From positions 35,714 to 99,713 of the forward strand of contig JANPCG010000010.1 of the NCBI GenBank assembly GCA_031430855.1: 64,000 bases of DNA, in the 5' to 3' direction. The notes beneath the pieces were generated by a model. It ran no database searches and was not told the DNA's origin. It saw only the letters and a program-made list of their open reading frames with translations. Both the position numbers and the translations under genes were made by a program. This DNA is from Candidatus Kaiserbacteria bacterium (GTDB taxonomy: Bacteria; Patescibacteriota; Minisyncoccia; Phycocordibacterales; UBA918). Below, one piece after another: positions 1 through 35,859 of this stretch; within the stretch, counting starts at the first letter, position 1, and each line of letters opens with the position of its first letter.

Positions 1-3000
1 GAACATACAACAGTTTACGCTCCAGAGTGGACGAGTATTTGAAACGACAGGCACCTTTACCCATGCCGCCAGTGGGACAGCTACTACCTGGACTGGTTCA
101 ACCTTGCGGCTATCTGGTAGTGATTCGGCCATTAATCTAAAGACTCATGGCGGAGATGTGTACGGTACTATTCAAACGAGTGGTGATACTGACGCGATTG
201 TATGGAATAGTAGTGCGACCAGTATTGTAAACGCGAGTACCTCGTCATTATATTCAGCTGATCATGCGGGGATTGATGGTGACCTTACTATTTACGGTGA
301 TTACGTACGAACGACAGGAACTGAGTTCTGGAGTTTAGCGACTGACTTTGATGGTGTGGCCCTGACTGGTTCAACCAGTCGTCAAGTTGATGTACGAATT
401 GCTACTGGTTCACGAGTCGGCTTTGTTTCTTCGTCGCTTAATCTCGTCGGCGGTAGTGGTGCGACAACTACAATTGACGCAGTATCTGGTGCGTATAGTC
501 TCAGTGCGACAAATACGACGATTACCGCGCAGGCTTTTAGTTTGGCAGGAACAGACACTCAAGGTCTCGTTTTGCAAGCGTCTACTTCCTTGGCTAGTTT
601 CCAAGACGGATTGTTTACTGTTATTCCTGGTCGGAGTGGTATCACTATCAGTAGTACAACCGTCGCACAAAATCCTTCGGCGCAGTACCAGCGGATTAGT
701 TTTGCGACGACCTCAGCTGGGGTTGGAACGAACGTTACCTTGGTTGGTACCACAAGTTCGTTTATCTGGTTCCGTACCGGTGGAGGCAATCTTTATGGTG
801 AAGCGTATGACGGGGGAGATGCAAATCCTGGATCAATTCGATGGGATGATAGTTCAAACTCGATTACGGTGTCCGGTGTCGTCTATTCAAACGATGGAAC
901 AACGATTCTGGGAGCACCGACGTGTAACGGAACCACGCCGAATGTACGGATTGTCGTAAATAATGGTACGTATACCGCTTCAACTACCTGTGCAGTCGGA
1001 ACCGGTGCCTACTCATTTGCGGGGGTAGCCTACGTTGGTGACCCAAAAATTACGGTCTATCTCGACACTAATGGTGGAGTGCGAGGAACTGCTATTACAA
1101 AAACTCCAACTGCAAACATTACGAATATGCATATTTATGCTGATCGTATTATTACTCGTCATCAAGACGTTGTGCCACTGACGATTTCTGACATGACTAC
1201 CTTTGACTTTGATGATGATACAGATATACGATTTATTGCGACCACAACTGGTTCGACTACGCTCACGGTGCTCCCGAACACTAGTCTGTTTGTGTTTGCC
1301 ACAACAACTTTCGCGCCAGGTGGAAATATTACACTCACCGGTAACGCGAGCTCGTCCGCAGTCGAAGGAACGCTTCAGTTAGCTAATGCGGCGACGTTTA
1401 CGGCAACCGGAACAGAAATGCACTCACTTTCAGGCCGGTTAGTGTTAGCTACAACTTCAGTCTTTACTGCGGCATCATCAACCTTTGTCTTTAACGCGAC
1501 CACTTCTGGCAAGAGTATTACGAGTCCAAATACCGTCACGTTTAATCAGCTCCAATTTACTGGAGCTGGTGGTGGTTGGAATATAACTGCGCCACTTATC
1601 GTGCAGGCAAATATGGATATTGCGACCGGAACTGTTACAGGAACAAATAACATCACGCTCACAGGTGGTTCACTCTCCGGTAATGGAACACTCTCGCTTG
1701 GTTCTGGCACCACAACCATTAACCAAACGAATACCCTTGGCGGTACGAGGGCTTGGACATTTGCAAACTTGGTCTTAGGTAATGGTTCGAGTGTAGGCAC
1801 GTCAACTCCTAATACGAGCGCTACTACGACCGTCAGTGGACGTCTTACTATTAGTAATGTTCACGTCCTCAAGGCTAACGCGACCTTGTGGGATCTCTCC
1901 GGTACGGGTACCGTCTTTACCGAAACCGGTACGCTCGTTGAAGACACAAGCACCTTTAGATACAGTGGAACTGCTTCAAATGTACTTTCAACTGGGTACT
2001 ATAATCTTGATCTTAATAGTGGAGCAGGGTCAGCTACGTATACCGCAGTTGGACTGGGTATCAGTGTGGCTAATAACCTCACTATTGGAGGTACTGCGAC
2101 AACAAACTTTAACCTCACCATCAACGACCCACTCTTAGTGGTTGGTAATGACATTTTGATTCGAAGTAACGGTACACTTACGGCCAGTGATATTGCGACG
2201 ACAACAGTGGCTCGTGATTGGATGAACACTGGTGCATTTATAAGTAACGGCGGTACAGTCACCTTTGTTGGTACCGGTTCTTCTACGATTATCGCCAGCT
2301 CATCATCCTTTGGTAATCTCACAATAAATGGTGCGGGTAGCTTTACGGTAGCTTCGAGCGCTACGACAACTGGTGCCTTCATGCTTACAAATCATGCCAA
2401 CTTTACTCTCTCAAGTGGTCGAACGCTCGCGATTGGTGGCAATTTCACTAACGGACTTGGAGGCGGAGCTACCACGTGGACTGGTAGTACACTGCATCTC
2501 TTTGGTGGCAACACGAAAGTAATTAATGCGTCTACGACCAGCGATGTGTACGAAACGCTTTCGGTCGCAGCTAGTACTAATGTTCGTATATGGAATAGCT
2601 CAGCTACAACGTACAATGCAACGGGCGGAATTTACTCACAAGACCATGCAGGTAGTAACGGAGCTCTAAATGTTTACGGTGCCTTCACTTCAAATACGCT
2701 GACTGATCACTGGAGCTACGCTACTGACTTTGATGGTACGTCACTTGCCGGGTCAGAACGAGCGGTAACGGTCTCGTTTGCAAGTAGTAGTAGTGCAACG
2801 TATACCGGAGGTAATCTCTTTGTAGTTGGAACCACTACAGCCTCAACCACTGTTCAAAATCAAGGTGTTGGTCGCTACACGGTGACCATTGGTACGGGAG
2901 CGACAACGCAATGGGATATGGTGCGAGTTCGTAATACTAATACCACCGGAATTGTCTTCACTGGTACTCCTCTCGTAACTGATTTCTCTCGTACTGACCA

Positions 3001-6000
3001 CATCATTGATATCAATAGTGGTACCGCTTTTACTGTCGGCGGTACCGTCATTGATGTGAATCAAGCCAAGAACTTTACGAACAATGTTTTTGCGACTTCC
3101 TCTGGTATCACGAGTGCAAGTAACGTGACAGCCACTGGTACAACCGTTAGTTCGTGGCGCTTTACAAATCATACTGGTGCGCTCTCAGGCGAGTTATATG
3201 ACTCCGACCCGGCTGGTGATCCAGGGTACTTGGTATGGGACAACTCAGCCGCACTCATCACAGTTTCCGGTAATGTGTACAGTGACGAAGGGTCAACAGT
3301 CTCAACTGTCTGTGATGGCACGACCCAAAATGTTGTCCTTCGAGTAGCTGGACTGACGACCTACACTTCATCATGTAATGCCGGAACCGGAGCGTATAGT
3401 ATGAGTGGTGTGGCATTTAGTCCTTCTGACACGCTCACGGTGTATATAGACGGGAATACTCGCAAGGCGGCGACAGTCAGTTCTGATCCAATTTCTTCAA
3501 TTGGTAACATGAACCTCTATGAAAACCGGGTCATTGTGCGGCACGAAAATACCAGCCCACTTTCGATTGCTGATATGGCAGTGTGGGATAGTTCTGACGA
3601 TGCAGACATTCAATTTACGGCGATTGATGCGGGGACAGATACACTCACGCTTCCGGCTGATCAAAAGTTATTAATTTGGAATGGTAAAACATTTGAACCG
3701 AATGGAAATGTGACCGTCTCGGGTGGTGGTGCAGGTGGTGCTCAAGATGGAACTCTCGAAGCGCAAACGAACGCGGTCTTTAGAGCGCAGGGAACAGAAC
3801 AACATACGGTCGGTGGCAGCTTTATCTTTGGTACCGGAGCAACTTTTGTGGCAGCGCAGTCATCAACGACTTTCACCACGACCGGTTCGGGACGCACTGT
3901 TGATGTCAATGCGGCGAGTTTCGGTAATGTTGCCTTTACTGGTTCAGGTAGCTGGACGGTTACTGATGCAACCTTTGCGACGAGTCGTTCATTTACGCAA
4001 ACGAATGGTACTGTAACCTTTGGTGCAGGCACGACAACAGTTGGTCGTTCGTTTAACGCGACTGCTGGTACGTTTATAATGTCTGGTTCGGCTCTTGTGT
4101 TTGTGAGTACGACAACCGGTAATGTTGTGCGCTTTGATGATTCATCGGTACCTGGTCTCCAATTCGTTGGTACTGGTGGAGCGTGGGCTATGACTGATAC
4201 TGATGCGACAACTACCGGTTCGTTTGCGGTGGCATCTGGTACGGTGACCTTGCCGTCTGGAAACCTAACCGTCAGTCGAAACTTCACTAACACTGGTGGA
4301 ACGATCACTAACAATACGTCGGATATTATAATGGTGGCTTCGTCCACAGCGACACTTACCGCCAGTGGCTCGAGTCTGTTTGCAGTGCGCTTCACCGGCG
4401 TTGGTCCGTTTACTATTGGTGATGTGAATTTAACTCTCTTGGATTCTCTGACGCTCGCAACGGGAACGCTTACTCTCGCGACGGGGACGTTATCTGTCGG
4501 TGGTGATTTCCTTATCGCTTCAGGAACGCTTAACAATGCAAGTGGTACGGTACTCTTTAATGCAACTACCGTAGGCAAGACTATAACGTTTGGAGCAAAT
4601 GCACTCTATAACGTGGTGTTTGGAAGTGGTACGGGTGGTTGGAATTTTACCGGGAACGCAACCACTACCAATAATTTCTCGATTACCGGAGCCACTTCGT
4701 TTACAAAAGAAGCCGACACAACCCTTAATGTTGGTGGGGTGTTTACAAACTTGGTTGGTGGTGCTAACACGACGTGGGCAACTTCAACCCTTCGTCTCTA
4801 CGGTACTGCCGGGTATACCCTTAATACCAAAACGGTTGGGGGTGATGTATACGGCACGCTATTTATTGGTACAAACCTACCAGTCAGAAGTTGGAATAGT
4901 AGTGCTGCTACTACGACCGTTAGTGCTGGTTCATCATGGTATTCACAAGATCATGCGGTGGTCGATGGTAATCTCAATATTTACGGTTCACTTACGATTG
5001 CGACGACTACAGAATACTGGAATTATTCGACGGACTTTGATGGTGCTGCCCTTACGGGAGTTAATCAGCGAGCGGTTGCGGTTCGGTTTGCTCAAAATGC
5101 TACCACTACCGTCGCCTCTGGCGCTCTCCAAATTGTCGGAACTACAACGGCATCGACTACGATTGGTAATCAGGCGACTGGTACCTATGCCCTCAGTATT
5201 CATGGTGGAACGTTTACCGCCCAGTACTACGCGTTCTCAAATCTTAATGCGTCTGGTTTGCAATTTGTTAATACTCCAACTATCTCAAATCTTTCAAATG
5301 GCTACTTTAATCTCGCCGTAAACAGTGGGTCATTAATTTCACTAGCAACCACCTCTCTTGATGCAAATGCCTCAAAGATTTGGACAGCGGTTGCGTTTAA
5401 TGCCACTTCCGGTCTCTCTGGTACTAACGTCAACCTCTCAGGATCATCGAGTAACGCGTGGCGTTTCAGTGGCAGTTACGGAAACCTGGGTGGTGAGGAC
5501 TACGATAACGATGGCGCCACTGCCTGTGGATCAATTCGGTGGGATAATAGTGGATGTTTACTGACACAACAAAGTTATATCCGCTGGCGTAATGATGATG
5601 GTGGGGAAGGTGCGCCACAAAGTGAGTGGTTTAATACCTCCTTTGATTACCGTAAGCGAGTTCGGGTAGTTAATAGTGATGCAAGTAACTATGCGAGTAC
5701 GGCGGTTAAGATAAATGTGACCTACGATAGTAATATGCAGTCCGACTTTGATGATTTACGCTTCACTGCAAATGATGGTACTACTACCATTCCCTATTGG
5801 ATTGAACGCTATACCGCGAGTACTGACGCGGTGGTGTGGGTCCGCGTTCCAAATATTGCCGCGAGCAGTATTGCCACTGTCTTTATGTACTATGGAAGTA
5901 GTACCGCGCCAAACAGTAGCTCGGGGTCTACTACGTTTGCTGCCTTTGATGATTTTGAAGACAATAACATTACCGAGTACGCTGGCGATACCGGTATATT

Positions 6001-7840
6001 CCAAACGGATACCACTCCGGTGTATGGTGGCACCTACGCGCTTGAAGCGTTAAATAAATCGGCTCGCGCGACTGACGGTATTTTCCGCACTGCACTCACG
6101 GTCAGTCAGGGTCAAATCATCCGCTGGATGCAATACATTGATACCGTTGCCGGCTCGGGAGATGAAGCGTGTACCCTCTTTGGGGTCCAGTCACCAGGTA
6201 CGAACAATAATAATTACGCTGTATGTCTTGAACAGTTTGGTACTGATCGGATTGCCATCTCTGAGAATGTTTCAGATAACGATGTGTCTGGTACTGTACT
6301 TTCGTCAACGACAGTAAGCTACACCACCGGGTGGTATGAAGTAGAGGTTGATTGGCAGACTAATAATACGATGAAAGCGTATCTCCGTACTGCAGCAGGC
6401 GCCTTGGTTGCATCAACTACTGCGACTGATGCCTCGTACACCACTGGTGGTATGGGCTTTACCTTCTGGTTCCAAAATGGTTCATGGGATAGCTTTACGG
6501 CGCGTGCGCGAGCTATGATCGCGCCAACAGTGTACTTTGGTGACGAGCAAACAGATGGTGGAGCAACCTGGGCAGCCGCTCAAAATGCACTCGGGTCGGG
6601 AATTCCTGGTACGGTACGTCGTCTCCGGGTCGGAATCGAAAATTCAGGTCTTAATGTAACTGGACAAACCTATCGACTTGAATACGCAGGGAAAGGTGTA
6701 GCGCCAAGTTGTGAGGCGGTGAGTTCTGGTAGTTATACCGCTGTGCCAAATCAAGCGAGTTGTGGTAGTTCTCCCGTCTGTATGCAAACCTCTACTAATA
6801 TTACTGATGGTGATGCTACAACCGACTTGCTTTCGAGTACTACTGGTGCGTTTACGGCTGGTCGAATTGTTGAGAGTCCATCTAATATCACGAGCGCTCT
6901 TAATATTAACCAAAACTTCTACACAGAGCTTGAGTATGCGATTACTCCAACAGTTAATGCCTCCGACGCCTATTGTTTCCGGGTCACTAATGGAGGGACA
7001 CCGCTCGATTTCTACAATAAAATAGCTGAGCTTGGTCTGCAGTTCGATCCAGTATTTGGACCAGTGAGTGTCAATAATGGTAATCCGATTATTTTGAATC
7101 CTGGTACGACAACGGCTATCTTTGCAACAGGTACCGTAACAGATTTTAATGGGCCGGGTGATTTGCAGCGAGCAACGTCAACCCTCTATCGAAGTAGTGC
7201 TGGTCCAAGTTGTGTTCGCAATAACAATAATTGTTATATTAGTAACACAGCGAGTTCTACTTGTACGTTCACCAACTGTTCTGGTAATACTTGTACGTTG
7301 TCATGTCGAGCAGATATTTTCTTCCACGCTGATGCGACTGACGTAGTGCCGTATGAAGGGGAAGAGTGGACGGCGTTCCTGGAGGTGTCTGATACTGGTG
7401 GAGGCTATGATTTTGCATCACCAGTCACAGGGGTAGAACTGCAGACATTACGTTATATGACGGTAGATACTGGCATTAACTACGGATCCCTTGCCGTAAC
7501 TGAAAACACTGGCGCATATAACCCAACTACTACAATATCTAATCTCGGAAATGTTGCATTCAACCTAGAAGTGTCAGGCAGTAACCTGACTGATGGCGGA
7601 TCTTCAGTCATCCCAGCTAATAAACAGAAATTTGCCAGTACTACTTTTATCTATAACTCATGTATCAGTTGTTCACTCGTTTCAACCAGTACCCCTGTAG
7701 TATTGGCGCTTGGTATCACTAAACCGACGGTTGCTACTCCACCAGTCTCAGCACCTATCTACTGGGGAATTGAAGTACCGCTAGGAGTAGCAAGTGTACC
7801 GCATCAGGGTATCAACTACTTCACGCCAGTTTCGCCGTAG
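1..7840 (+). CDS. Giant Thr/Ser/Gly-rich cell-surface protein (5'-partial, >2578 aa). It has beta-helix/adhesin-like repeats, then a DUF2341-like segment and a jelly-roll-like C-terminal region.
   Basis: The reading frame is open from nt 2 in the same frame as the 104 TTG, and the upstream residues already show the repeat motif (TGSTLRLSG), so the gene starts before the window. Three super-repeats each contain WNSSAT...SQDHAG..G.L.[IV]YG...T.[EH][FY]W[SN][LY][AS]TDFDG..L[TA]G. At nt ~5579-5910 the protein reads IRWRNDDGGE...YRKRVRVVNSD...DLRFTANDGTTTIPYWIERYTASTDAVVWVRVPNIAASSIATVFMYYGSS, which matches the DUF2341 consensus I remember (DirF..dG..L.yeIE.wd...a.vWVkvp.l....iymYYGN). Confidence 0.8.
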   Translation, partial: NIQQFTLQSGRVFETTGTFTHAASGTATTWTGSTLRLSGSDSAINLKTHGGDVYGTIQTSGDTDAIVWNSSATSIVNASTSSLYSADHAGIDGDLTIYGDYVRTTGTEFWSLATDFDGVALTGSTSRQVDVRIATGSRVGFVSSSLNLVGGSGATTTIDAVSGAYSLSATNTTITAQAFSLAGTDTQGLVLQASTSLASFQDGLFTVIPGRSGITISSTTVAQNPSAQYQRISFATTSAGVGTNVTLVGTTSSFIWFRTGGGNLYGEAYDGGDANPGSIRWDDSSNSITVSGVVYSNDGTTILGAPTCNGTTPNVRIVVNNGTYTASTTCAVGTGAYSFAGVAYVGDPKITVYLDTNGGVRGTAITKTPTANITNMHIYADRIITRHQDVVPLTISDMTTFDFDDDTDIRFIATTTGSTTLTVLPNTSLFVFATTTFAPGGNITLTGNASSSAVEGTLQLANAATFTATGTEMHSLSGRLVLATTSVFTAASSTFVFNATTSGKSITSPNTVTFNQLQFTGAGGGWNITAPLIVQANMDIATGTVTGTNNITLTGGSLSGNGTLSLGSGTTTINQTNTLGGTRAWTFANLVLGNGSSVGTSTPNTSATTTVSGRLTISNVHVLKANATLWDLSGTGTVFTETGTLVEDTSTFRYSGTASNVLSTGYYNLDLNSGAGSATYTAVGLGISVANNLTIGGTATTNFNLTINDPLLVVGNDILIRSNGTLTASDIATTTVARDWMNTGAFISNGGTVTFVGTGSSTIIASSSSFGNLTINGAGSFTVASSATTTGAFMLTNHANFTLSSGRTLAIGGNFTNGLGGGATTWTGSTLHLFGGNTKVINASTTSDVYETLSVAASTNVRIWNSSATTYNATGGIYSQDHAGSNGALNVYGAFTSNTLTDHWSYATDFDGTSLAGSERAVTVSFASSSSATYTGGNLFVVGTTTASTTVQNQGVGRYTVTIGTGATTQWDMVRVRNTNTTGIVFTGTPLVTDFSRTDHIIDINSGTAFTVGGTVIDVNQAKNFTNNVFATSSGITSASNVTATGTTVSSWRFTNHTGALSGELYDSDPAGDPGYLVWDNSAALITVSGNVYSDEGSTVSTVCDGTTQNVVLRVAGLTTYTSSCNAGTGAYSMSGVAFSPSDTLTVYIDGNTRKAATVSSDPISSIGNMNLYENRVIVRHENTSPLSIADMAVWDSSDDADIQFTAIDAGTDTLTLPADQKLLIWNGKTFEPNGNVTVSGGGAGGAQDGTLEAQTNAVFRAQGTEQHTVGGSFIFGTGATFVAAQSSTTFTTTGSGRTVDVNAASFGNVAFTGSGSWTVTDATFATSRSFTQTNGTVTFGAGTTTVGRSFNATAGTFIMSGSALVFVSTTTGNVVRFDDSSVPGLQFVGTGGAWAMTDTDATTTGSFAVASGTVTLPSGNLTVSRNFTNTGGTITNNTSDIIMVASSTATLTASGSSLFAVRFTGVGPFTIGDVNLTLLDSLTLATGTLTLATGTLSVGGDFLIASGTLNNASGTVLFNATTVGKTITFGANALYNVVFGSGTGGWNFTGNATTTNNFSITGATSFTKEADTTLNVGGVFTNLVGGANTTWATSTLRLYGTAGYTLNTKTVGGDVYGTLFIGTNLPVRSWNSSAATTTVSAGSSWYSQDHAVVDGNLNIYGSLTIATTTEYWNYSTDFDGAALTGVNQRAVAVRFAQNATTTVASGALQIVGTTTASTTIGNQATGTYALSIHGGTFTAQYYAFSNLNASGLQFVNTPTISNLSNGYFNLAVNSGSLISLATTSLDANASKIWTAVAFNATSGLSGTNVNLSGSSSNAWRFSGSYGNLGGEDYDNDGATACGSIRWDNSGCLLTQQSYIRWRNDDGGEGAPQSEWFNTSFDYRKRVRVVNSDASNYASTAVKINVTYDSNMQSDFDDLRFTANDGTTTIPYWIERYTASTDAVVWVRVPNIAASSIATVFMYYGSSTAPNSSSGSTTFAAFDDFEDNNITEYAGDTGIFQTDTTPVYGGTYALEALNKSARATDGIFRTALTVSQGQIIRWMQYIDTVAGSGDEACTLFGVQSPGTNNNNYAVCLEQFGTDRIAISENVSDNDVSGTVLSSTTVSYTTGWYEVEVDWQTNNTMKAYLRTAAGALVASTTATDASYTTGGMGFTFWFQNGSWDSFTARARAMIAPTVYFGDEQTDGGATWAAAQNALGSGIPGTVRRLRVGIENSGLNVTGQTYRLEYAGKGVAPSCEAVSSGSYTAVPNQASCGSSPVCMQTSTNITDGDATTDLLSSTTGAFTAGRIVESPSNITSALNINQNFYTELEYAITPTVNASDAYCFRVTNGGTPLDFYNKIAELGLQFDPVFGPVSVNNGNPIILNPGTTTAIFATGTVTDFNGPGDLQRATSTLYRSSAGPSCVRNNNNCYISNTASSTCTFTNCSGNTCTLSCRADIFFHADATDVVPYEGEEWTAFLEVSDTGGGYDFASPVTGVELQTLRYMTVDTGINYGSLAVTENTGAYNPTTTISNLGNVAFNLEVSGSNLTDGGSSVIPANKQKFASTTFIYNSCISCSLVSTSTPVVLALGITKPTVATPPVSAPIYWGIEVPLGVASVPHQGINYFTPVSP
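104..5570 (+). repeat. Three diverged copies of a ~2.3-2.4 kb (~795 aa) super-repeat inside the giant gene.
   Basis: The anchor motif WNSSAT occurs at nt ~206, ~2590 and ~4885 (spacings 2384 and 2295 nt). Each copy is followed by SQDHAG, Y/WxxATDFDG and RxVxVxFA blocks. The similarity is at protein level, not near-identical DNA. Confidence 0.6.
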
Positions 7841-7848
7841 GTAATGAT

Positions 7849-9324
7849 ATGATTACACCAATGGTACAACGATGGCTTGTTTTAGGTGGCATTTTGCTTG
7901 CAATGCCTTTTGGTGTGATTGCTCAAACTAACGATTTGGTGGCACCTGAAATCACTAATGTAAAAGTAGCGAGCTCTACCGCTACGAGCATTACCGTAAC
8001 GTGGGTGACAGATGAAAAAGCTGATTCATCAGTTAACTATAGTTTACAACCCGACCTCGGCGTTGTTCGTAAACCACTCGCTGATCGAACCAATCACTCG
8101 ATTACAATTGATAATCTTGAAGCGGGGAAAACCTATTATTTCAGGGTAATTTCTGCAGACGTCGATGGTAATCAGGGTATTTCAGCTGACTATAAGATTG
8201 AGAGTCCAGAGTCATCGTCCAAAACAACAGAATCAACCACGAAAAATACCGTTCAGGTAGAATCACAAACGACCCAAGAAATCGTTGAGCAAATTAATCA
8301 AATTACTAACCCGCAACAATTGCAGGAAATCCTTAATGAAACCATTAAGGCAATTAAAGGAATTACCGAAGACCTCACCATTGTTGGTCCTCCTACCGTT
8401 GAGCCAGAGACAACCTTTGCTGTCGTGAAGTGGATCACTGACCGGCCGGCAAGTGGTGAGGTAGTTTTCTCACCTACAAGTGGGTTTAATGGTTCAAATT
8501 TTGCGTTCTCGCAGTCATCAACCGGAGATCGGACTACTGATCATGAAATTCGTTTAATCGGCCTTGAGCCTTTTACTGAATATAGTTTCCAGGTTCGTTC
8601 AACTGATGAGTATGGTATTACCGGAGAAAGTCGTAATTACACGTTTCGTACCAAAGCGTCTTTACCTGATATTCGTAACTTGCGTATCGTAAAGGTTGAA
8701 GAAAATGCAGCTACGCTTGCGTGGGATACAACCGTACCAGCAAAAGCCTTGATTGAATATCAGGATTTGACCACCGGGGTACAGAATTCAGTCGGTCGAC
8801 CGACCTTGGCGACCACACACCAGATGCGCTTGGCTGACTTGACCTTGGGAACTCGCTACGTAGCCTTCGTGATAGCAGAAAATTCTGGTGGTGACCGTGT
8901 TCGTAGTCAACCGATTCAGTTTATTACCGTGCGTGATATCGCTCCACCAATCATTACCAATGTAACGAACGAATCAACTATTTTTCCCGGTGGAGAATCT
9001 CGAATTCAAACGATTGTTGAATGGAATACGGACGAAGCTGCATCATGTTTGATGACCTATCGAGAAGGAGTTGCCGGGGGAGTTGATCCGGTTACGATTG
9101 AACAAGAGAATGTGCAGTATTCAACCAGTCACGTAGAAGTAATTGTTGATTTCGCGCCAGCGACAGTGTATCAGTTCTGGCTTAACTGTACGGATGAAGC
9201 GAAAAATACCATTCAGTCTGAAAACTTTGTCCTCTTTACCCCAATTCAAGAGAAAAATATTATTGATTTGATCTTGGAGAACTTTGAGTCGACTTTTGGC
9301 TGGGTTAAGAATATAACTAATTAA
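7849..9324 (+). CDS. Secreted protein with about four fibronectin type III-like domains.
   Basis: There is an N-terminal signal peptide (MITPMVQRWLVLGGILLAMPFGVIAQ). Repeated Fn3-like units follow (ITVTWVTDEKADSSVNY...GKTYYFRVISADVDGNQG; ATLAWDTTVPAKALIEYQ...GTRYVAFVIAENSGG). The gene is 6 nt downstream of the giant gene's stop. Confidence 0.7.
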   Translation: MITPMVQRWLVLGGILLAMPFGVIAQTNDLVAPEITNVKVASSTATSITVTWVTDEKADSSVNYSLQPDLGVVRKPLADRTNHSITIDNLEAGKTYYFRVISADVDGNQGISADYKIESPESSSKTTESTTKNTVQVESQTTQEIVEQINQITNPQQLQEILNETIKAIKGITEDLTIVGPPTVEPETTFAVVKWITDRPASGEVVFSPTSGFNGSNFAFSQSSTGDRTTDHEIRLIGLEPFTEYSFQVRSTDEYGITGESRNYTFRTKASLPDIRNLRIVKVEENAATLAWDTTVPAKALIEYQDLTTGVQNSVGRPTLATTHQMRLADLTLGTRYVAFVIAENSGGDRVRSQPIQFITVRDIAPPIITNVTNESTIFPGGESRIQTIVEWNTDEAASCLMTYREGVAGGVDPVTIEQENVQYSTSHVEVIVDFAPATVYQFWLNCTDEAKNTIQSENFVLFTPIQEKNIIDLILENFESTFGWVKNITN

Positions 9325-9427
9325 AATTATTTATTTCTTAATCCGCCAAAAGGTTCCAGGACTTTCATTAGGGATAGAAAGTCGGAACAAAGTAAAATCA
9401 TACAACCTTACGGTTGTTGTTTTACTT

Positions 9428-9457
9428 TTCGGTTGGGTTAAGAACATCACCAACTAG
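9428..9457 (+). pseudogene. Ghost 3' end: a second copy of the last 9 codons plus stop of the upstream Fn3 gene (FGWVKNITN*), with synonymous changes.
   Basis: The gene ends ttt ggc tgg gtt aag aat ata act aat taa (9295-9324). About 104 nt downstream, ttc ggt tgg gtt aag aac atc acc aac tag encodes the identical 9 residues plus a stop, with 8 silent differences. The frame upstream has no Met and reaches an in-frame stop. Confidence 0.5.
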
Positions 9458-9839
9458 AGCCTAAAAACAGCGAACTTCTTTGTCAGGCTGCAGTAAAAAT
9501 TTTCTCACTGTACAAGGAGTACGGCTCATAAATTTTTCCTTGCCCTCCTCGAATTTCATCTGTTTTATAGACTCTAGTAAAAAAATCTTTCTCTATGGCG
9601 TTTTATCTTCCGTCGTATTTTTTCCCATTTTGCAGAAGCTATTCACTCATTAGAAATTTTTTTCTTTACCTTACAAAATTGCTCAAAGAGTCTTGCGAAG
9701 TGACTTTATGTCACTTCTCACCTCTCATTGCATCCAATTCTTAAAGTTTTTTAGAAATAAAATTTAATAAGACTAAAGATACATTTATTAACTGTGAGTT
9801 GTCTCGATATATATACAGTGAGCGTGTCATAATACATAA

Positions 9840-11162
9840 ATGGCAAAGCCGCTTATCACGTGTCGTGATCTTTCTATTATTTACAACAAAGGAAAGTCTA
9901 ACGAATTCCGTGCACTCCAAAATGTAAACACTGACATCTATGAAGGTGAGTATATTATTCTGTTCGGTGCGTCTGGCTCAGGGAAATCTACCCTGATGTA
10001 TTCAATTCAGGGCTCACTCCCACCGGGAGATGGGACGCTGCTTATTCGAGGTGATGATATTTACTCCTATCCGCCATCAGAGCGAGTTTATTTTCAACGG
10101 TACGTGATGGGTATTATCTTCCAGTCATTTAACCTGATTGGGTCGCTGTCAGTGCTCGACAATGTTGCTTTGCCACAAATTTTTTGTGATGTTGATAAAA
10201 CTACGCGCGATAGACGCGCCCAGTCACTTTTAGACCGCTTTGGGGTAGGTCATGTATCACACAAATTGCCCTCGATGCTCTCTGGAGGTCAGCAGCAACG
10301 TGTCTCGGTAGCTCGTTCGATGGTGAATGACCCAAAGATTTTGCTGGCGGACGAGCCGACGGGTAACCTTGACTCGGTTTCCACGCAGCAAGTAATGGAC
10401 AAAATTGATGAAATTAACACGTTTGATAGACGGACCATTATTATGGTGTCGCACAACGCTGCCCACTTAAGCTACGCCCACCGCGTGTATTACCTCAAAG
10501 ACGGCTTTGTCGTGCGTGAAGTGGTAAATCCACAACGAAAACAAATTAAACCAGTGCGAGAAGGGGAGACAATTGTAACCGAACTCGAACAATTAGCGCG
10601 GTTATTTCCCTACGATTCAGTTGAGACGCTTCGGGTCAAGAGTTTGGTGAATTATTTAACTCAGGATTACACCTTTAATCAACTAAATCGTTTAGAACGG
10701 GCTGTTGCTTACTTTATAAATGGAAAGATTGACCGTGACTCTTTTGTAAAAGCCCTGATTCTCCCGGCTGAACAGGGTGGAGTCGAAATGCCTGAGTTTA
10801 AAGCGAAGCAGATGGCCAAACAAAGTGAAATTTTAATCCATCAATCAGACGATATTCGTCGTTTCCGGGCCAAAAAAGACAATCCAGGAGTATTTTTTGA
10901 TCAACATAAACTTGCCGAGCGATTAAAAGATCATGTATTACATATATATCGAATAAAGATGAGTAAAGAAATGGATGATAATCTGACTGAATTAATTGCT
11001 GACCGTGTTACCGGAGTAATTGAGGAAAGTGAATTCAATGCCAAGTTAATGGTAGGAGTGCGACAACATGGGCTGGCACTATCAGAAAAGGAAGCCGACG
11101 AAGTAACTCGTTATTTTGAAAAATTAATTGCGCAAGGGGTGGATGTGAGTTACAAGAGCTAA
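9840..11162 (+). CDS. ABC transporter ATP-binding protein (MacB/LolD/FtsE-like) with a ~200-aa helical C-terminal extension.
   Basis: Walker A is GASGSGKST, Q-loop IFQSFNL, ABC signature LSGGQQQRVSVAR, Walker B ILLADEPTGNLD and H-loop MVSHN. The 440-aa length leaves a C-terminal half (aa 230-440) that I do not recognise. Confidence 0.85.
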   Translation: MAKPLITCRDLSIIYNKGKSNEFRALQNVNTDIYEGEYIILFGASGSGKSTLMYSIQGSLPPGDGTLLIRGDDIYSYPPSERVYFQRYVMGIIFQSFNLIGSLSVLDNVALPQIFCDVDKTTRDRRAQSLLDRFGVGHVSHKLPSMLSGGQQQRVSVARSMVNDPKILLADEPTGNLDSVSTQQVMDKIDEINTFDRRTIIMVSHNAAHLSYAHRVYYLKDGFVVREVVNPQRKQIKPVREGETIVTELEQLARLFPYDSVETLRVKSLVNYLTQDYTFNQLNRLERAVAYFINGKIDRDSFVKALILPAEQGGVEMPEFKAKQMAKQSEILIHQSDDIRRFRAKKDNPGVFFDQHKLAERLKDHVLHIYRIKMSKEMDDNLTELIADRVTGVIEESEFNAKLMVGVRQHGLALSEKEADEVTRYFEKLIAQGVDVSYKS

Positions 11163-11318
11163 AGAGAAGATGGAATATTGAATAGGGAAGAAAGAAAATA
11201 AAATAATCAAAAGTGAATAATGAGTCTTTTACTATTTTGTAAATGGTATTATTTAATTATGTAAATTGGAGGTATACACCCGAAAGTATTTTTGTGTGTG
11301 TCACCCTCAATATTAATT

Positions 11319-12527
11319 ATGCGAATTCAAGATCTTGCACAACTTTCCACTCGAATGTTCAAAACGAATCCACTGCGTACGTGGTTAACTATTTTAGGTA
11401 TGGGTGTAGGAACCGGGGCAGTAGTAATTTTGGTGGGTCTGGGGTTTGGTTTGCAGCAAATTATTTTGGAACAAATTGTGTTCGGAGAAACCCTACTTTC
11501 ACTTGGTGTATCCGCTACCGGGGCGCAAAACCTTAAATTAACAGCTGAAACGGTTACCCAATTTGAAACTAAGCCGGAAGTTCTTGATGCTGCTCCCTTA
11601 GCTCGGTTCCCAGCGCTCGTTACTTACAAAGGACTCACCGGTAATGTGTTTATTCAAGGTGTAGAACCACCATATCTACGGTACGCTGGAGTCACCGCTA
11701 CTGCGGGTACTGTTTTTACCGATGCTGATGCAGCAGACACTAACTCGGTCATGCTCTCACCCGCGGTACTCAAATTATTCGGGATTGAAGATCCAAAAAG
11801 TTTCGTGGGGCAAAAAGTCGCCTTTCGAATTTTAATTCCCGCTGAAGATGGGACTGATACTAATACTGAAATTCTGATCGAAAAAGAATATACCGTCCGC
11901 GGCATTACCAAAGAAGAAGGAGTCTTGAATGCCATGATGATGTTACCTGAGTTACGGAACTATGTCGGTATTGAGGAGTATGAGCGTATTCAAGTTCGGG
12001 TTGATACCAATGAAAATTTACCCTTAGTAGAAAAACAACTGATTGAAGAAGGGTATCGCGTAACCGCGCTCTCAAAGACTGTTGAGCAAGCCTCAAAAAT
12101 TTTCCAGGGTGTACAGGCAGTGCTGGCTACCTTCGGAGGGATTGCGCTCCTAGTATCTGCAATTGGAATGTTTAATACGATGACGGTGACTCTCCTCGAG
12201 CGTACCAAAGAGATTGGAATTATGCGCACTATTGGTGCCTCTCCAAACGATGTAAAGTATCTCTTCGTATCAGAATCTGTGGTGGTGGGCTTTATGGGTG
12301 GGGTTACTGGAGTAGCTATGGGAGTAGCGTTAGGATTGGCAGTTAATTTGTTTTTAAATATTGTAGCTGGTCAATTTGGTGGACAGTCAGTGAGACTATT
12401 CTCATTTCCCTTAGGCTTCCTGACATTCATTATTGTTTTTTCGGCAGGTGTGGGGTATCTCACTGGAATTTTCCCGGCACGGCGGGCATCGTCACTTAAT
12501 CCGCTTGACGCGATTCGGTATGAATAG
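11319..12527 (+). CDS. ABC transporter permease, FtsX/MacB family (N-terminal TM, large extracytoplasmic domain, three C-terminal TM helices).
   Basis: The N-terminus is a TM helix (LRTWLTILGMGVGTGAVVILV), followed by a ~230-aa periplasmic domain. The C-terminal FtsX-like block reads TFGGIALLVSAIGMFNTMTVTLLERTKEIGIMRTIGASPNDV. It sits immediately downstream of the ABC ATPase. Start 11319 (MRIQDL) is preferred over 11292. Confidence 0.8.
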   Translation: MRIQDLAQLSTRMFKTNPLRTWLTILGMGVGTGAVVILVGLGFGLQQIILEQIVFGETLLSLGVSATGAQNLKLTAETVTQFETKPEVLDAAPLARFPALVTYKGLTGNVFIQGVEPPYLRYAGVTATAGTVFTDADAADTNSVMLSPAVLKLFGIEDPKSFVGQKVAFRILIPAEDGTDTNTEILIEKEYTVRGITKEEGVLNAMMMLPELRNYVGIEEYERIQVRVDTNENLPLVEKQLIEEGYRVTALSKTVEQASKIFQGVQAVLATFGGIALLVSAIGMFNTMTVTLLERTKEIGIMRTIGASPNDVKYLFVSESVVVGFMGGVTGVAMGVALGLAVNLFLNIVAGQFGGQSVRLFSFPLGFLTFIIVFSAGVGYLTGIFPARRASSLNPLDAIRYE

Positions 12528-12586
12528 TGTGTATAACTTAGGGTATAAGTGTGTGAGTATCAGCTAAAATATAGTAGTAAATTATT

Positions 12587-14461
12587 ATGACGTACAACAA
12601 TCAAAACCTACCGCAGTATGTAGAGACTGCCGGAAAAATCACCGTTTTAACAGCTTTATCAGGAGTATTAATCTTTGCGTTTGTTTTTATACTAAACGTC
12701 GGAAAAACAGAACTTAATCGAGTTGAAGCGCAAGGTCTTGCGACGACGACACTTACCGTATTGAACACGCCACCAACGTGGACGACTGGTCAGGAAGGAC
12801 GTGAGGAGTTTGAGTCATCAACCTCAACACCAACCAATTCAGGTAGTCAGATTTCATGGGTGGCAAATGCAACTGATGCAAATAACGCTCCATACTACCT
12901 ACTTATCTGTAGTGGCAGTGCTTCACCAACCGCAAACGCTTCGGCGCCACCATCATGCGTTGGTGGTACTCAGTGGGCCGTTTCAACATCAACAGTGAGT
13001 GGGCAAAATGCCCGAGCTGCAACTACTACTACCGAAATTGCTCCGTTTGGTGAACAAAACGCTTGGTATGCTTGGATTTGTGACTTCGATACTAACTCAC
13101 GCTGTAACAATGTCTCTTTCCAGGGAATTAATGCCACTAACTCTTCACCATTTGCGGTCAACAAGCGACCTACCTTTACCGCATTTGGTAACAGTGGAGC
13201 GACACCACCAGGTGGCACCATTACGTTCTTCTCTACTTCATCTGATGCTGACATTGCTGATGACGACCGTATTTACTTGATTGTTTGTGGAACTGCGTCA
13301 TACAGTACAACGACAAATACCTGTGGTGTTGGAGACACCCTAGCATCTTCTTCAGTATCCTTTGCGCTTAATAATGCGACAACATCTCGAATTCTTGCGA
13401 GTATACTGCAAGATACGAACTACAATGCCTTTCCCTATGTCTTCGATCAACACGGTCACAGTGCTTCGGGTGGTGCACAAGGTGTAAACGTAGCATTCAC
13501 CGTTTTGAACGTAGCGCCAACCGTGGCTGGGGGAACCATCTCACTAAATCAAGGGAGCAACATGACGTTAACGAACCCTGGCGGTCAAACGACTGGATTT
13601 AGACTCGACTTCGTAGTGGCTGACGCTAACAGTTGTGACGCCTTTGGAGGAGCTGCCGCTGATGAAGTTACTGGCTACGTTGCCTCAGTTTTCAGAAGTT
13701 CAGTTGGTACTACTACTTGTAATGGTGCAGCTGGGTCCTACAATGCAAACAATTGTTATCCAAGTGGAATCGGATCTACAACCTGGAATCTCTCATGTAC
13801 TGCTTCAACCACCAGTTGCGCCGGAAGTAGTGATGATACAATCAACTACAGTTGTACGTTCCCACTCTGGTTTATTGCTGACCCGACGGACGGAACTCCG
13901 TTTGCCGCCTCAAGTACTCCTTTCTCAGCCCAAAACTGGTCAGCAGGAGTAGCTGGTATCGATGATGACTTTGCAACTGGCAGTATGGCCACTAATACCT
14001 CACCCGTTGAAGTGAATAGCTTGGTCGCTATAAACATGCTATCTAACCTCATTACGTATCCAAACCTTGAATCGGGTAGTAACATGCCATTCCTAACTTC
14101 AACCAGCAGTCTCTCAAACTTTGGTAACACAGGACTCAATCAAATCTTATTTGGAGACTCAATGTGTGGTACGTATTCTATAAGTAATCCATGTCCCGTT
14201 TCTGCTAGTTCAACTATCCCGGTAACTGAGCAGCGATATGGAGCCACAAGTACTGCTGTGTATGGAGCAGGGACATCTCTTGGAGCTTCAACGTCACCGG
14301 CCACATTTACCATTCAAATTCCTAAATCAACGGCAACGAGTACACCAACATCAGGGACTACCTATTGGGGTATTCGGGTACCGGTAGCAATTACACTTTC
14401 GGGTGCGTATACCGGTCGAAACACCTTCATTGGAGCGGTGTCAGCCAGTACGACCTGGTAG
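12587..14461 (+). CDS. Thr/Ser- and Cys-rich surface protein with an N-terminal membrane anchor or signal peptide.
   Basis: The N-terminal hydrophobic segment is ITVLTALSGVLIFAFVFILNV. The composition is low-complexity Thr/Ser/Gly/Asn with many Cys (probably disulfide-bonded), and I recognised no enzymatic motif. Confidence 0.65.
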   Translation: MTYNNQNLPQYVETAGKITVLTALSGVLIFAFVFILNVGKTELNRVEAQGLATTTLTVLNTPPTWTTGQEGREEFESSTSTPTNSGSQISWVANATDANNAPYYLLICSGSASPTANASAPPSCVGGTQWAVSTSTVSGQNARAATTTTEIAPFGEQNAWYAWICDFDTNSRCNNVSFQGINATNSSPFAVNKRPTFTAFGNSGATPPGGTITFFSTSSDADIADDDRIYLIVCGTASYSTTTNTCGVGDTLASSSVSFALNNATTSRILASILQDTNYNAFPYVFDQHGHSASGGAQGVNVAFTVLNVAPTVAGGTISLNQGSNMTLTNPGGQTTGFRLDFVVADANSCDAFGGAAADEVTGYVASVFRSSVGTTTCNGAAGSYNANNCYPSGIGSTTWNLSCTASTTSCAGSSDDTINYSCTFPLWFIADPTDGTPFAASSTPFSAQNWSAGVAGIDDDFATGSMATNTSPVEVNSLVAINMLSNLITYPNLESGSNMPFLTSTSSLSNFGNTGLNQILFGDSMCGTYSISNPCPVSASSTIPVTEQRYGATSTAVYGAGTSLGASTSPATFTIQIPKSTATSTPTSGTTYWGIRVPVAITLSGAYTGRNTFIGAVSASTTW

Positions 14462-14552: not shown

Positions 14553-15512
14553 ATGCAGATAACTATTTCCACAGCGTTTATTCGTGTTGTTACCATTGCT
14601 GTAATTCTCTACGTTACCTTTGGAGCCGTCGCTGCGCACGCCGGATTTGGGATTACACCACCCTATGTACGTAACACGAGCTTGACGCGAAATTCTACCT
14701 ATGAACAACAAATCCTTCTGGTACGTGGTGATCCAAATGAACCATTAAATGCAGTCATTACTGTTGATGCGCCTGAGATTCAAGACTGGATCGAGATCGT
14801 AGAGGGTACCACAATTTTGATGCCTCGGGGTGAACAAAAAGTTACCATGACCGTGCGTATTAAAGTTCCTGAAGATGCAAACTTTCAAGAGTATGCGGGA
14901 AAAATTCGTATCAAAACTGAACCAACCGACGATCAGGTAGCGCAAGGAGTAGTGAGTATTTCTTTAGGTGCCCAGGTTGATATTAACGTAAACGTAATTG
15001 ACAGAGTAATCGAGGACTTTAGGGTTCGACGTATCTCTGTACTTGATTTAAATGAAGGCCATAAAGTTGGCTGGCTATATTTCCCGGGTAAAATTCAATT
15101 TTCAATGTCGATAGAGAATACTGGTAATATAGAAATTGCTCCGTCAAAAGTCCAGTTTAGAATATTTGATAGAACGGGAGCAGTATTACTTGAGGAAACG
15201 ACCCATAAAGGAAAACTCAATAAAATTGCACCATATCTTACTGGTGATATAACTTCAGAATTGCCAACCAGGCTTCCTCCAGGTAGTTATATGGCTCGGT
15301 ACAGTATATTTAATGGAGATGAGATAAAACAAGAAGGTGAGCTTAACCTCAGTATTCTACCGTACGGTACCCTTCAGACGTCTGGATTTGGCTTTAGCGG
15401 GCTTTCTGTCCCACACAAGCTATCATTACTCCTTCCAATCTTTGCTCTCCTAATCTTCATTCTCTACACAATTTACAATCGACGACTTCGGCGCAAAATG
15501 AGAGTGAAATAA
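14553..15512 (+). CDS. Signal peptide, a ~270-aa beta-rich ectodomain, a C-terminal TM helix and a short basic tail (paralog 1 of 3).
   Basis: The signal peptide is VVTIAVILYVTFGAVAAHA and the mature N-terminus reads GFGITPPYV. The C-terminus is LLLPIFALLIFILYTIYNRRLRRKMRVK. It shares architecture and motifs with ORFs 30567 and 31540, and resembles DUF916/DUF3324 (CscA-type) proteins, though that match was not verified. Confidence 0.65.
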   Translation: MQITISTAFIRVVTIAVILYVTFGAVAAHAGFGITPPYVRNTSLTRNSTYEQQILLVRGDPNEPLNAVITVDAPEIQDWIEIVEGTTILMPRGEQKVTMTVRIKVPEDANFQEYAGKIRIKTEPTDDQVAQGVVSISLGAQVDINVNVIDRVIEDFRVRRISVLDLNEGHKVGWLYFPGKIQFSMSIENTGNIEIAPSKVQFRIFDRTGAVLLEETTHKGKLNKIAPYLTGDITSELPTRLPPGSYMARYSIFNGDEIKQEGELNLSILPYGTLQTSGFGFSGLSVPHKLSLLLPIFALLIFILYTIYNRRLRRKMRVK

Positions 15513-15515
15513 ATA

Positions 15516-16637
15516 ATGCCTATGTATGAAAAGCTTACAGCACTCATACTGGGCATACTGATACTCGAGACATTTACGAGTACCAGAGTGTATGCAGTAG
15601 AAATCTTTACCGCTACGACGACGATTAACCTCAGTATTTGCGGAAATTCACTTGTTGATATTGGTGAACAATGTGACATTCCTGGCGAACTTGGGGTTTA
15701 CAGTACTACTATTGTTGGAAGACAGTGTTCTCCTGCGTGTCGTTTTGGTGCCTATTGTGGTGACGGTATTTTGCAAACGCAATTTTCTGAAGAATGTGAC
15801 GATGCCAATAATGATAGTGGCGACTTTTGTTCTGCTACCTGTACGATTGAACCGGCCGGGTCAGGAGGAGGAGGTTCCTCGGGAGGTGGTGGGTCACGCG
15901 GTGGAGGGACGCGAGATGTTGGAGGAACTCAAATTAGTATTACCGGTTTAGGCTATCCGAACCAGACGATTAACTTCTTACTCGATACTCGTTCAATTGG
16001 TTCAGTGCGAGCCAATACAGCGGGTCGCTTTGAATTTACTGCAGAAGCTTCACCCGGCACCGCCACCCTAGGAGTCTGGGCACAGGACAGTAGTGGTCGG
16101 AGATCTATTACCTTAAACAATACGTTTGATGTAACACAGGGGGCGGTAACAAATGTATCAGGTTTAATTTTACCTCCAACAATTTCTGTTCCAAGTCCTA
16201 ATATTATTCCCGGCAGTTCACTTGTCATCTCTGGACAAGCGATTCCGTCTGCAAAAGTTGATATCCACTTTAATAATAACGAAATTGTAGAATCAACGAA
16301 TAGTGCTGTTGATGGTCGATACACACTTACATTTAACACCACGCGACTGCGTAATGCTGAGTATGCAATTAAGGCCCGCTCAGTCACCGGAACGGCACCA
16401 CTTTTAACTCAGAGTGGATTTAGTAGTTTGCTCCAACTGTTTGTTGGTGTAGATGGTAAACCAACCACCTCATCAGATCTTAACCGTGACGGTAGTGTGA
16501 ATCTGATCGACTTTTCGATTTTAATTTTCTGGTGGCAAACTCCTGGTGGTGACTCTGAACCTCCGGCTGACATAAACAGTAATGGACGGGTTAGTCTGGA
16601 GGATTTCTCAATCCTACTCTTTAACTGGACCGGCTAG
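15516..16637 (+). CDS. Secreted protein with Cys-rich repeats, a poly-Gly linker, Ig-like region(s) and a C-terminal dockerin-like module.
   Basis: It has a signal peptide and repeats of CGDGILQ..EECDDANNDSGDFCSATC type. The linker is SGGGGSSGGGGSRGGG. The C-terminus (DLNRDGSVNLIDFSILIFWW ... DINSNGRVSLEDFSILLFNW) is a duplicated Ca-binding loop of the dockerin type (DxNxDGxVNxxD). Confidence 0.7.
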   Translation: MPMYEKLTALILGILILETFTSTRVYAVEIFTATTTINLSICGNSLVDIGEQCDIPGELGVYSTTIVGRQCSPACRFGAYCGDGILQTQFSEECDDANNDSGDFCSATCTIEPAGSGGGGSSGGGGSRGGGTRDVGGTQISITGLGYPNQTINFLLDTRSIGSVRANTAGRFEFTAEASPGTATLGVWAQDSSGRRSITLNNTFDVTQGAVTNVSGLILPPTISVPSPNIIPGSSLVISGQAIPSAKVDIHFNNNEIVESTNSAVDGRYTLTFNTTRLRNAEYAIKARSVTGTAPLLTQSGFSSLLQLFVGVDGKPTTSSDLNRDGSVNLIDFSILIFWWQTPGGDSEPPADINSNGRVSLEDFSILLFNWTG

Positions 16638-18232: not shown

Positions 18233-18352
18233 AGAATATTGGTCCAAGCTTGGAGTAATACAGCAAAAAACCCTATCTCCCACCACGAGTAGGGTTTTTG
18301 CTTTGTGTACAAAGTGAGTCTTTTTGTATCGCTAATACGATATACTATCGGA

Positions 18353-24332: not shown

Positions 24333-24389
24333 ATCACTCTCTACAGTCCCCCTGTTTCCGTGACGCTTAAACCATGCGAGAATAAAGGA

Positions 24390-35424: not shown

Positions 35425-35859
35425 ATGATTGAAAAACGAAACATTGAAACGTTTATGCGCATTAATGGCATAGAGCCGTCTGCTAAAGATGAGGAGATTC
35501 GTTCAGTACTCATTAGTGCGCGATGGAATGAAAATGAAGTTGATACGGCGTTAATGGTCTTAAAAGAAAATACCACCACCAAGCTAACACATGTAGATAC
35601 GCTTCATAAAGTTTTTAATACCAATGGAAGACTTACTTCTGCTGAAATTAGTACACTTTTGGGGATTGATGTTGAGCTTACAAACGAAGATGTGGGCGAC
35701 ATAAATTTAAAGCGTGCTCGGATTGAGCGTGCTCAAGGACTGCTTTCGTTTGGTCTTTCAATTGTTATCGCGTTAACCAGTATAGGCTATTTGATGTATC
35801 AGGAAAAAGCGGGAATTTTTAACGAAAACCCAGTATTATCTGATAATGTCCCGCTTTAA
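35425..35859 (+). CDS. Hypothetical tail-anchored protein (144 aa).
   Basis: The single C-terminal TM is LLSFGLSIVIALTSIGYLMY. The ATG overlaps the upstream stop region. Confidence 0.5.
   Translation: MIEKRNIETFMRINGIEPSAKDEEIRSVLISARWNENEVDTALMVLKENTTTKLTHVDTLHKVFNTNGRLTSAEISTLLGIDVELTNEDVGDINLKRARIERAQGLLSFGLSIVIALTSIGYLMYQEKAGIFNENPVLSDNVPL

Follow-up and report, generated by a model that had tools for sequence, protein, structure and literature searches.

What does an ultra-small bacterium do with a protein of ~6,000 residues? The question is raised by the first gene in a 64,000-nt stretch of Candidatus Kaiserbacteria DNA (contig JANPCG010000010.1 of assembly GCA_031430855.1, forward-strand positions 35,714 to 99,713; hereafter the window, with positions counted from its first letter). 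An earlier note, made from the letters of this DNA, had described the end of that gene as a region with a DUF2341 signature and a probable concanavalin- or LamG-like jelly-roll, following three large repeats and closing in a Cys-rich part. The flagged stretch is the C-terminal end of a ~6,000-residue surface protein of an ultra-small Kaiserbacteria/Paceibacteria bacterium. On the evidence set out below, nt 5564–7840 probably encode the distal ligand-binding head of a giant surface fibre adhesin anchored at its N-terminus.

The part of the giant gene that lies in the window occupies nt 2–7840 of the plus strand, where the frame starting at nt 2 stays open over 2612 codons, without interruption, to a stop at nt 7838–7840. 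The length of 2578 aa given by the open reading frame (ORF) lister counts from the first TTG (nt 104) only; as no stop lies upstream of this TTG, the gene is already in progress at the window edge and its 5′ end lies beyond it. Around residue 1859 the amino acid composition shifts (Thr from 18.0 to 12.9%, Cys from 0.3 to 1.9%, Glu from 1.0 to 3.6%), bearing out the proposed switch to a distinct region after the repeats, and the peptide that had suggested DUF2341 (YIRWRNDDGGE...YRKRVRVVNSD...DLRFTANDGTTTIPYWIERYTASTDAVVWVRVPNIAASSIATVFMYYGSS) is located at residues 1859–1992.

The DUF2341 signature itself was confirmed by Pfam. Its DUF2341 model (PF10102) matches residues 1915–1990 (nt 5744–5971) with an E-value of 1.1e-22 and 80.7 bits (gathering cut-off, 23.4), spanning model positions 1–76 of 84, and likewise matches 42 of the 43 homologues in the alignment. 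Beyond DUF2341, no Pfam or NCBIfam family scored above cut-off in the window part of the giant. The last 768 residues, modelled with AlphaFold2 from the alignment of these 43 sequences (A1), are all beta, with a mean predicted local distance difference test (pLDDT) score of 91.2, and comprise five domains, D1 to D5. D1 (nt 5564–5971) is a beta-sandwich that carries the DUF2341 signature and whose strands reach pLDDT >90. Searching the PDB with the five-domain model in Foldseek returned generic immunoglobulin (Ig)-like chains (e.g. alpha-2-macroglobulins, integrin alpha and mastigonemes) at template-modelling scores (TM-scores) <0.2. Because the search with the whole head was thus uninformative, D1 and D2 were modelled separately (residues 1852–2189, nt 5555–6568, 338 residues), giving a pLDDT of 92.4 and a predicted TM-score (pTM) of 0.88.

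In this confident sub-model, the structure predicted to follow DUF2341 is indeed a jelly-roll: D2 (nt 5972–6562) adopts a concanavalin-A-like fold of ~13 strands (13 in residues 147–343 of the segment model) with a conserved disulfide pair, C2057/C2075. The fold result rests on 50 listed Foldseek matches from the PDB, among which concanavalin-A-like lectin and glucanase folds predominate, with probabilities of ~1.0 and target TM-scores of 0.5–0.6. They include the lectin region of galactocerebrosidase (E 5e-7), the carbohydrate-binding module CBM66 (E 6.6e-6, target TM-score 0.58), calreticulin, Emp46p/VIP36, a legume lectin, galectins, GH16 glucanases and SO2946 (2a5z), the last in agreement with a weak Pfam match to SO2946-like_C (E 0.018, below cut-off); the few remaining matches among the 50 are other beta-sandwich or multi-domain enzymes. 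The concanavalin/LamG-like assignment thus stands at the level of the fold but not as LamG membership by sequence, as no LamG-type Pfam model matched the whole protein (E ≤1), the 43 family members (E ≤0.1) or the isolated domain (E ≤10). An orthologue from the related locus L007 possesses a second, upstream DUF2341 followed by a Laminin_G_3 match (E 7.7e-11), and when the head alignment was compared with this DUF2341+Laminin_G_3 unit in hhalign, the DUF2341 part alone was aligned. Among predicted viral structures (BFVD), DUF2341 and LamG proteins match over ~350 columns with target TM-scores of up to 0.62; as these matches extend across both domains, DUF2341 plus jelly-roll can be regarded as a recurrent two-domain unit. 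Direct reading of residues 1991–2187 revealed no copy of the GH16 motif E-x-D-x(x)-E, the nearest string being YEVEVDW. Since the best structural matches are also non-catalytic, D2 would be a binding domain rather than an enzyme.

The remainder of the model consists of D3 (residues 2188–2349, nt 6563–7048; positions 373–535 of the head profile), a beta-sandwich with four conserved cysteines; D4 (residues 2350–2449, nt 7049–7348), a small beta-sandwich with six (NNNNCY...C...C...C...C...C); and D5 (residues 2450–2612 plus the stop codon, nt 7349–7840), a terminal beta-sandwich of ~9 strands with a conserved CxxC and the ending YWGIEVP...H.G.N.F. Sixteen cysteines, 15 of them in the last 768 residues together with C1842, are each at least 95% conserved among the 43 homologues and allow eight possible disulfide pairs; cysteines so conserved fit an extracellular protein. 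The Cys-rich end described in the earlier note corresponds to NNNNCYISNTASSTCTFTNCSGNTCTLSC at residues 2400–2435, but the second string cited for it, CNGTTPN...C, lies at residues 308–330, in a Y module of the repeat region.

To what extent is this head shared? An exhaustive search of 1.84 billion representative proteins with the head profile yielded 21,848 proteins at E ≤1e-3 and 1,780 at E ≤1e-30. The complete head was found in ~45 clusters, always at the protein C-terminus. D3 recurs by itself elsewhere in Patescibacteria, where one protein may contain as many as 22 matched stretches, and D4–D5 (profile positions 537–796) is present on hundreds of surface proteins of the Candidate Phyla Radiation (CPR), where it almost always forms the extreme C-terminus of otherwise different chains of 750–7200 aa. 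Several of these D4–D5 proteins carry an N-terminal hydrophobic segment and DUF2341/LamG units of their own. No match for D4–D5 was found in Pfam or NCBIfam (up to E 10) or among PDB sequences; PDB sequence searches with the head and with D4–D5 gave nothing significant; the best hits over all such searches with parts of the giant, to Q-beta A1 (E 0.52) and antibody VH domains (E 0.014), were taken as chance.

The repeat region upstream of the head is built from two alternating modules, X (~270 aa) and Y (~500 aa). Module X starts with TTWTGSTL and ends with IRWDxS, and its three copies are 38–42% identical in pairwise BLASTP comparisons: X1 (aa 28–290, nt 83–871; TTWTGSTL...IRWDDS; 38% identity to X2 and X3), X2 (aa 824–1095, nt 2471–3286) and X3 (aa 1590–1854, nt 4769–5563; 42% identity to X2). 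X3 lies directly before the C-terminal module, ends with a conserved Cys pair (C1842/C1852) and, in the consensus of the 43-sequence alignment, precedes the head in all homologues. Module Y1 (aa 291–823, nt 872–2470) opens with an Ig-like part containing a Cys pair (ITVSGVVYSNDG...C...C), continues as a Thr/Ser/Gly/Asn-rich part and is 36% identical to Y2 (aa 1096–1589, nt 3287–4768); the Y modules have a weak 20–22-residue periodicity in autocorrelation. The three super-repeats of ~795 aa reported before are genuine as repeats, with periods of 796 and 766 aa, but not in number, since the window contains two full periods plus the third X (2.3 periods). The repeats matched no Pfam family (best, AC_1 at E 0.25, with nine sub-pieces of the giant searched up to E 10), and X2, Y2b and the super-repeat alignment matched nothing significantly among PDB sequences. 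The earlier label ‘beta-helix-like’ for the repeats, which would call for a solenoid with coils of ~18–25 residues (pectate-lyase-like or ice-binding-like), is a tentative one.

Comparison with orthologues revealed how much of the protein lies beyond the window. Relatives of the head in the databases carry the name ‘DUF2341 domain-containing protein’; their sources are Candidatus Kaiserbacteria, Paceibacterota and Parcubacteria. In a genome scan, the closest genome hit was 73% identical, and uninterrupted ORFs extended over at least 5876 (L005), 5945 (L007) and 5743 aa (L004). The last ~2610 residues of L005, L004 and L007 are collinear with all 2612 residues of the window giant (72, 71 and 61% identity, respectively), as are the C-termini of 27 representative orthologues of 5310–7696 aa (34–63% identity), which bears out the earlier claim that the 5′ end is missing and the protein larger than seen. 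Given the lengths of these orthologues, ~2,700–5,100 residues are missing from the window; extrapolation from the closest relatives (L005 frame extended with L011) would put the missing part at about 3,700 residues and the full length near 6,300 aa. On sequence grounds, the window giant belongs to a conserved Paceibacteria/Kaiserbacteria family of giant surface proteins. Across 25 orthologues, the last 2600 residues align with ≤2.5% gaps and mean identities of 44–53% in D1–D5 and 44–55% in the stalk modules, and the length variation of the family lies further N-terminal. Upstream parts of orthologues contain Ig_Rha78A_N domains and a second DUF2341. The N-termini of L011–L014 and of most of the 27 representatives start out basic and continue into a single hydrophobic helix. 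In L011–L014, the helix is followed by an acidic, Pro/Glu/Thr-rich low-complexity linker of ~300 residues, in place of which many of the 27 representatives have a conserved ‘ERTIHVFP..V..GW’ segment directly after the helix.

Many database homologues look short because giant gene calls are broken, as is exemplified by L001 (positions 1–12952; GCA_041389025.1, Paceibacterota). Here, the gene for the orthologous giant seems to fall into four calls (2998, 2498, 60 and 983 aa); its reading frames run on across the breaks, and the 2498-aa call carries a junk tail. The breaks reflect either assembly frameshifts or a decaying gene. The database protein P0012 is the tail of this L001 gene, apparently split off by frameshift-like breaks, and its ‘start’ falls in the middle of an X module. 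More generally, ‘homologues’ of 900–1335 aa are largely gene-call fragments, and the notion that the head normally sits on a short protein was therefore dropped. A genuine short relative is P0025 (1282 aa), which combines a signal/transmembrane segment and an ice-binding-like domain with the same head; hhalign aligned the super-repeat alignment with P0025 over the shared X and head regions only, and not over the Ice_binding beta-helix. Some relatives encode two or three giant surface proteins in tandem (2874, 1959 and 1282 aa; L003, positions 1–13849, and upstream in L001), and in some of these tandem giants ice-binding-like (PF11999) domains replace part of the stalk.

The giant is the first member of a conserved gene block on the plus strand. 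Directly downstream, both in the window and in L001–L005 and L007, lies the gene for a secreted fn3/purple-acid-phosphatase-N-like repeat protein of 491 aa (nt 7849–9324), assigned by Pfam and with a signal-peptide-like N-terminus. It is followed by genes for a 440-aa ABC ATPase (nt 9840–11162) and a MacB_PCD/FtsX permease of the MacB/LolCDE/FtsEX type (nt 11292–12527), both assigned by Pfam and NCBIfam; the pair occurs in the same order in L001–L003, and L004 and L005 have a 440-aa ORF at the same place. The next gene (nt 12587–14461) encodes a protein of 624 aa that has a single transmembrane helix at its N-terminus and whose residues 366–602 are homologous to D4–D5 of the giant (BLASTP, 28% identity over 239 aa, E 3e-13) and share its Cys pattern and YWGI.VP ending. 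In L001–L003 a gene for 620–644 aa takes this position. Two further genes are syntenic in L001–L003, namely those for a 319-aa protein that starts with a signal sequence and has a transmembrane helix at its C-terminal end (nt 14553–15512) and for a Big_6/DUF4215/dockerin protein (nt 15516–16637; Pfam). The order giant, fn3 protein, ABC ATPase, MacB/FtsX permease, ~620-aa protein, ~315-aa protein and Big_6/DUF4215 protein is kept in L001–L003 and also, within the extent of the loci, in L004, L005 and L007. The ABC domain of the ATPase ends around residue 240 and is followed by a C-terminal extension of ~200 aa without a family match; the length of the ATPase is exactly 440 aa throughout L001–L005. 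The 515-nt gap between the fn3 and ABC ATPase genes (nt 9325–9839) contains no ORF of at least 80 aa, and Rfam and tRNA scans of it were empty; a similar spacing separates the two genes in L003–L005.

How might these parts work together? In the reading we consider probable, the giant would be exported by the Sec system and stay membrane-bound through the one helix at its N-terminus, a putative anchor for which a cleaved signal peptide is the alternative. The acidic Pro/Glu/Thr-rich spacer would let the chain cross the envelope, and the beta-rich repeat modules, thousands of residues in all, would make up a long stalk. At the far end of the stalk, the lectin-like head would attach to a carbohydrate or another surface ligand, most probably belonging to the host cell that these bacteria, with their reduced genomes, depend on. 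What suggests an adhesin is that the modelled D2 most closely matches lectins and carbohydrate-binding modules without catalytic function. The reading is in line with the literature, where a connection between DUF2341 and adhesins at pilus tips has been drawn (PMC4858521), a part in adhesion or host interaction has been suggested for the giant DUF2341/FhaB proteins of Patescibacteria (PMC11809585), and concanavalin/lectin domains are common on CPR surface proteins (PMC5220378). Several points weigh against it. The N-terminus is known from orthologues only, not from this genome, and the argument for adhesion runs through predicted folds only. Moreover, the head is not hypervariable (its 44–53% identity resembles that of the stalk), unlike many host-specific receptor-binding tips, and conservation this even would be compatible with a structural role or with self-binding as well. 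Lastly, the presence of D4–D5 at the C-terminus of many proteins and on a neighbouring membrane protein could indicate docking or assembly rather than ligand binding.

The last point leads to the alternative that the polarity is reversed, with the N-terminal segment acting as a cleaved signal peptide, D4–D5 as a cell-proximal docking domain (comparable to WxL, SLH or dockerin) and the rest of the chain pointing outward. A docking or assembly role for D4–D5 is possible because it is a common terminal unit, nearly always C-terminal in proteins of different architecture (750–7200 aa), and is shared with the co-encoded membrane protein at nt 12587–14461. The conserved 319-aa protein with its C-terminal transmembrane helix and the MacB-type transporter, both encoded alongside, would also suit docking, as would a head as conserved as the stalk, which is expected of an assembly interface. 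However, no WxL, SLH, dockerin, LysM or other wall-binding family was matched in Pfam or NCBIfam, the 624-aa paralogue has its transmembrane helix at the N-terminus and D4–D5 at the opposite end, and the acidic Pro/Glu/Thr-rich spacer of L011–L014 adjoins the N-terminal helix, i.e. it occupies the usual wall-spanning position beside an anchor; we therefore hold reversed polarity to be rather unlikely. The even conservation and the length invariance of the last 2600 residues across orthologues of 34–72% identity, together with an operon conserved in the six relatives examined (as far as the loci reach), might instead point to a structural envelope component, such as a unit from which a surface layer, sheath or cell-cell junction is built, and not to a ligand-specific adhesin. 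Lectin-type and DUF2341 domains are, however, typical of binding proteins, and one helix with a chain of ~6000 residues is in general the build of a fibre and not of a lattice-forming surface-layer protein, leaving a structural role distinctly improbable.

It is very unlikely that the giant is the tip subunit of a donor-strand-exchange (Pam-like) pilus, in which the lectin-like domains would correspond to the lectin domain of FimH and the terminal domain would be a strand-accepting, incomplete Ig fold. This idea draws on a nearby ORF (nt 17081–18229) with a sub-threshold CPR_Pam_pilin_C match (E 8e-5), on nearby proteins with a signal and a C-terminal transmembrane helix that have the build of the PamC/PamD chaperones (bioRxiv 10.64898/2026.03.03.709456), and on the appearance of RbmA when the fold of the whole head was searched. 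Yet neither the giant nor D4–D5 matches the Pam pilin model NF058581 or any other NCBIfam model (D4–D5 to E 10), and at the sequence level D4–D5 was rejected as a Pam pilin for this reason. Furthermore, the giant has no BLASTP similarity to the ORF at nt 17081–18229 and, to go by its orthologues, has a membrane helix of its own; D5 was confidently modelled as a complete sandwich; and Pam pilins are reported mainly in Saccharimonadia and Microgenomatia (bioRxiv 10.64898/2026.03.03.709456). Just as little probability attaches to an enzymatic function, with D2 as a GH16-like glycoside hydrolase or lyase acting on host or environmental polysaccharide. Foldseek did list GH16 beta-glucanases and laminarinases, but the single-domain matches that score best (CBM66, lectins, calreticulin) have no catalytic function, searches of Pfam and NCBIfam up to E 10 gave no family of glycoside hydrolases or lyases, and the enzyme reading of D2 was rejected on account of the missing catalytic motif.

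A broader proposal concerns the locus as a whole. The giant, the MacB-type transporter, the 624-aa D4–D5 protein and the protein with a signal and a C-terminal transmembrane helix could form an undescribed, Paceibacteria-wide host-attachment apparatus, in which the ~260-residue D4–D5 unit would be a new terminal docking/assembly domain and the transporter would exert a mechanical action on the fibre, in the manner of FtsEX and MacB with their extracytoplasmic partners. We put this forward as a speculative idea that is rather unlikely.

Among known proteins, the giant DUF2341/FhaB proteins of Patescibacteria (PMC11809585) resemble the window giant in DUF2341, size class, origin and the proposed role in adhesion or host interaction. 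The window giant differs in lacking an FhaB domain; moreover, that class has been described by domain counts only, and the account does not include the five-domain head, its fixed terminal position or the conserved operon. D2 shares the fold of the concanavalin-A-like superfamily, and its central-strand pattern (W-Y-E-V-E-V-D-W ... L) resembles that of LamG on direct reading, but it matches no member family by sequence. The staphylococcal serine-rich adhesin SraP, with its L-lectin module, and the giant repeat adhesins of Gram-negative bacteria (LapA/MpIBP type) likewise combine a long repeat stalk with a lectin- and Ig-like binding region, and the binding region of SraP was also returned by the fold search with the whole head. 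Unlike these adhesins, the giant has no serine-rich repeats, RTX repeats (no HemolysinCabind or related Pfam match) or type I secretion signal, and would be anchored by an N-terminal helix. Its C-terminus, ...PHQGINYFTPVSP (...INYFTPVSP), contains no LPXTG motif, sortase signal or transmembrane segment. Any resemblance to SraP- and LapA-type adhesins extends to the working principle only. PilY1-type and archaeal type IV pilus proteins with DUF2341 also have an inferred adhesive tip role (PMC4858521), but the giant is far larger and, in its orthologues, has its own membrane helix; a scan of the 64-kb window, covering ORFs of 150 aa or more, found no type IV pilus assembly family. Viral DUF2341/LamG proteins (of Cafeteria roenbergensis virus, Sulfolobales rod-shaped and ellipsoid viruses and a Halogranum tailed virus) share the ~350-aa unit (E 5e-13 to 3e-8, target TM-scores of up to 0.62), but are only 12–23% identical, measure 240–780 aa and lack D3–D5 and the stalk.

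The remaining window is ordinary chromosome and contains, among other genes, uvrABC, tgt, ddl, two tRNA-Ala genes and an AcrB/HlyD pair. Several further proteins of note are encoded on the plus strand. A second giant of 2065 aa (nt 24360–30557) has an N-terminal hydrophobic segment, no Pfam family and two D3-type copies (33% identity, E 6e-13 and 1e-11). The ORF at nt 17081–18229 encodes a 383-aa secreted protein whose match to CPR_Pam_pilin_C (NF058581) reaches 22.7 bits against a cut-off of 55; no PDB sequence matched it. Judged from its sequence, it may be a divergent Pam pilin, in a class (Paceibacteria) where Pam pili have not been reported to be common. Cohesin (E 2.5e-7) and dockerin modules (E 6.8e-7 and 6e-4) reside on separate secreted or membrane proteins (nt 15516–16637, 19376–21136 and 21815–22567), which suggests a surface scaffold unrelated to cellulose degradation. 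Three proteins of ~320–350 aa (nt 14553–15512, 18305–19369 and 30567–31562) have an N-terminal signal-like segment and a single C-terminal transmembrane helix, a build like that reported for Pam chaperones and WxL-interacting proteins, and one of them has weak fn3_5/WxLIP_PGBD matches. In a 564-aa protein (nt 31498–33192), a LytR_C domain (E 3.9e-8) occurs together with a region weakly resembling WxLIP_PGBD and with an internal transmembrane segment; the protein is envelope-associated and lies within the same one-directional gene block.

With respect to novelty, the giant is a further example of a database-labelled, uncharacterised family, and the occurrence of DUF2341 on giant proteins of Patescibacteria is already in the literature (PMC11809585). 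The terminal D4–D5 unit and the operon may be undescribed, as no description of the five-domain head, of the D4–D5 unit and its distribution, or of the MacB-type operon with a D4–D5 paralogue was found in Pfam, NCBIfam or the literature searched. The finding itself extends by one example a class to which databases and literature had already drawn attention. The D1–D2 pair and the D4–D5 unit are small enough for expression and testing. Patescibacteria (CPR) account for a large share of bacterial diversity and apparently live attached to other cells, with contact molecules that are mostly unknown. Because it combines a conserved family, a confidently modelled lectin-like end and a fixed gene neighbourhood, the giant is a concrete candidate for an attachment fibre in Kaiserbacteria/Paceibacteria.

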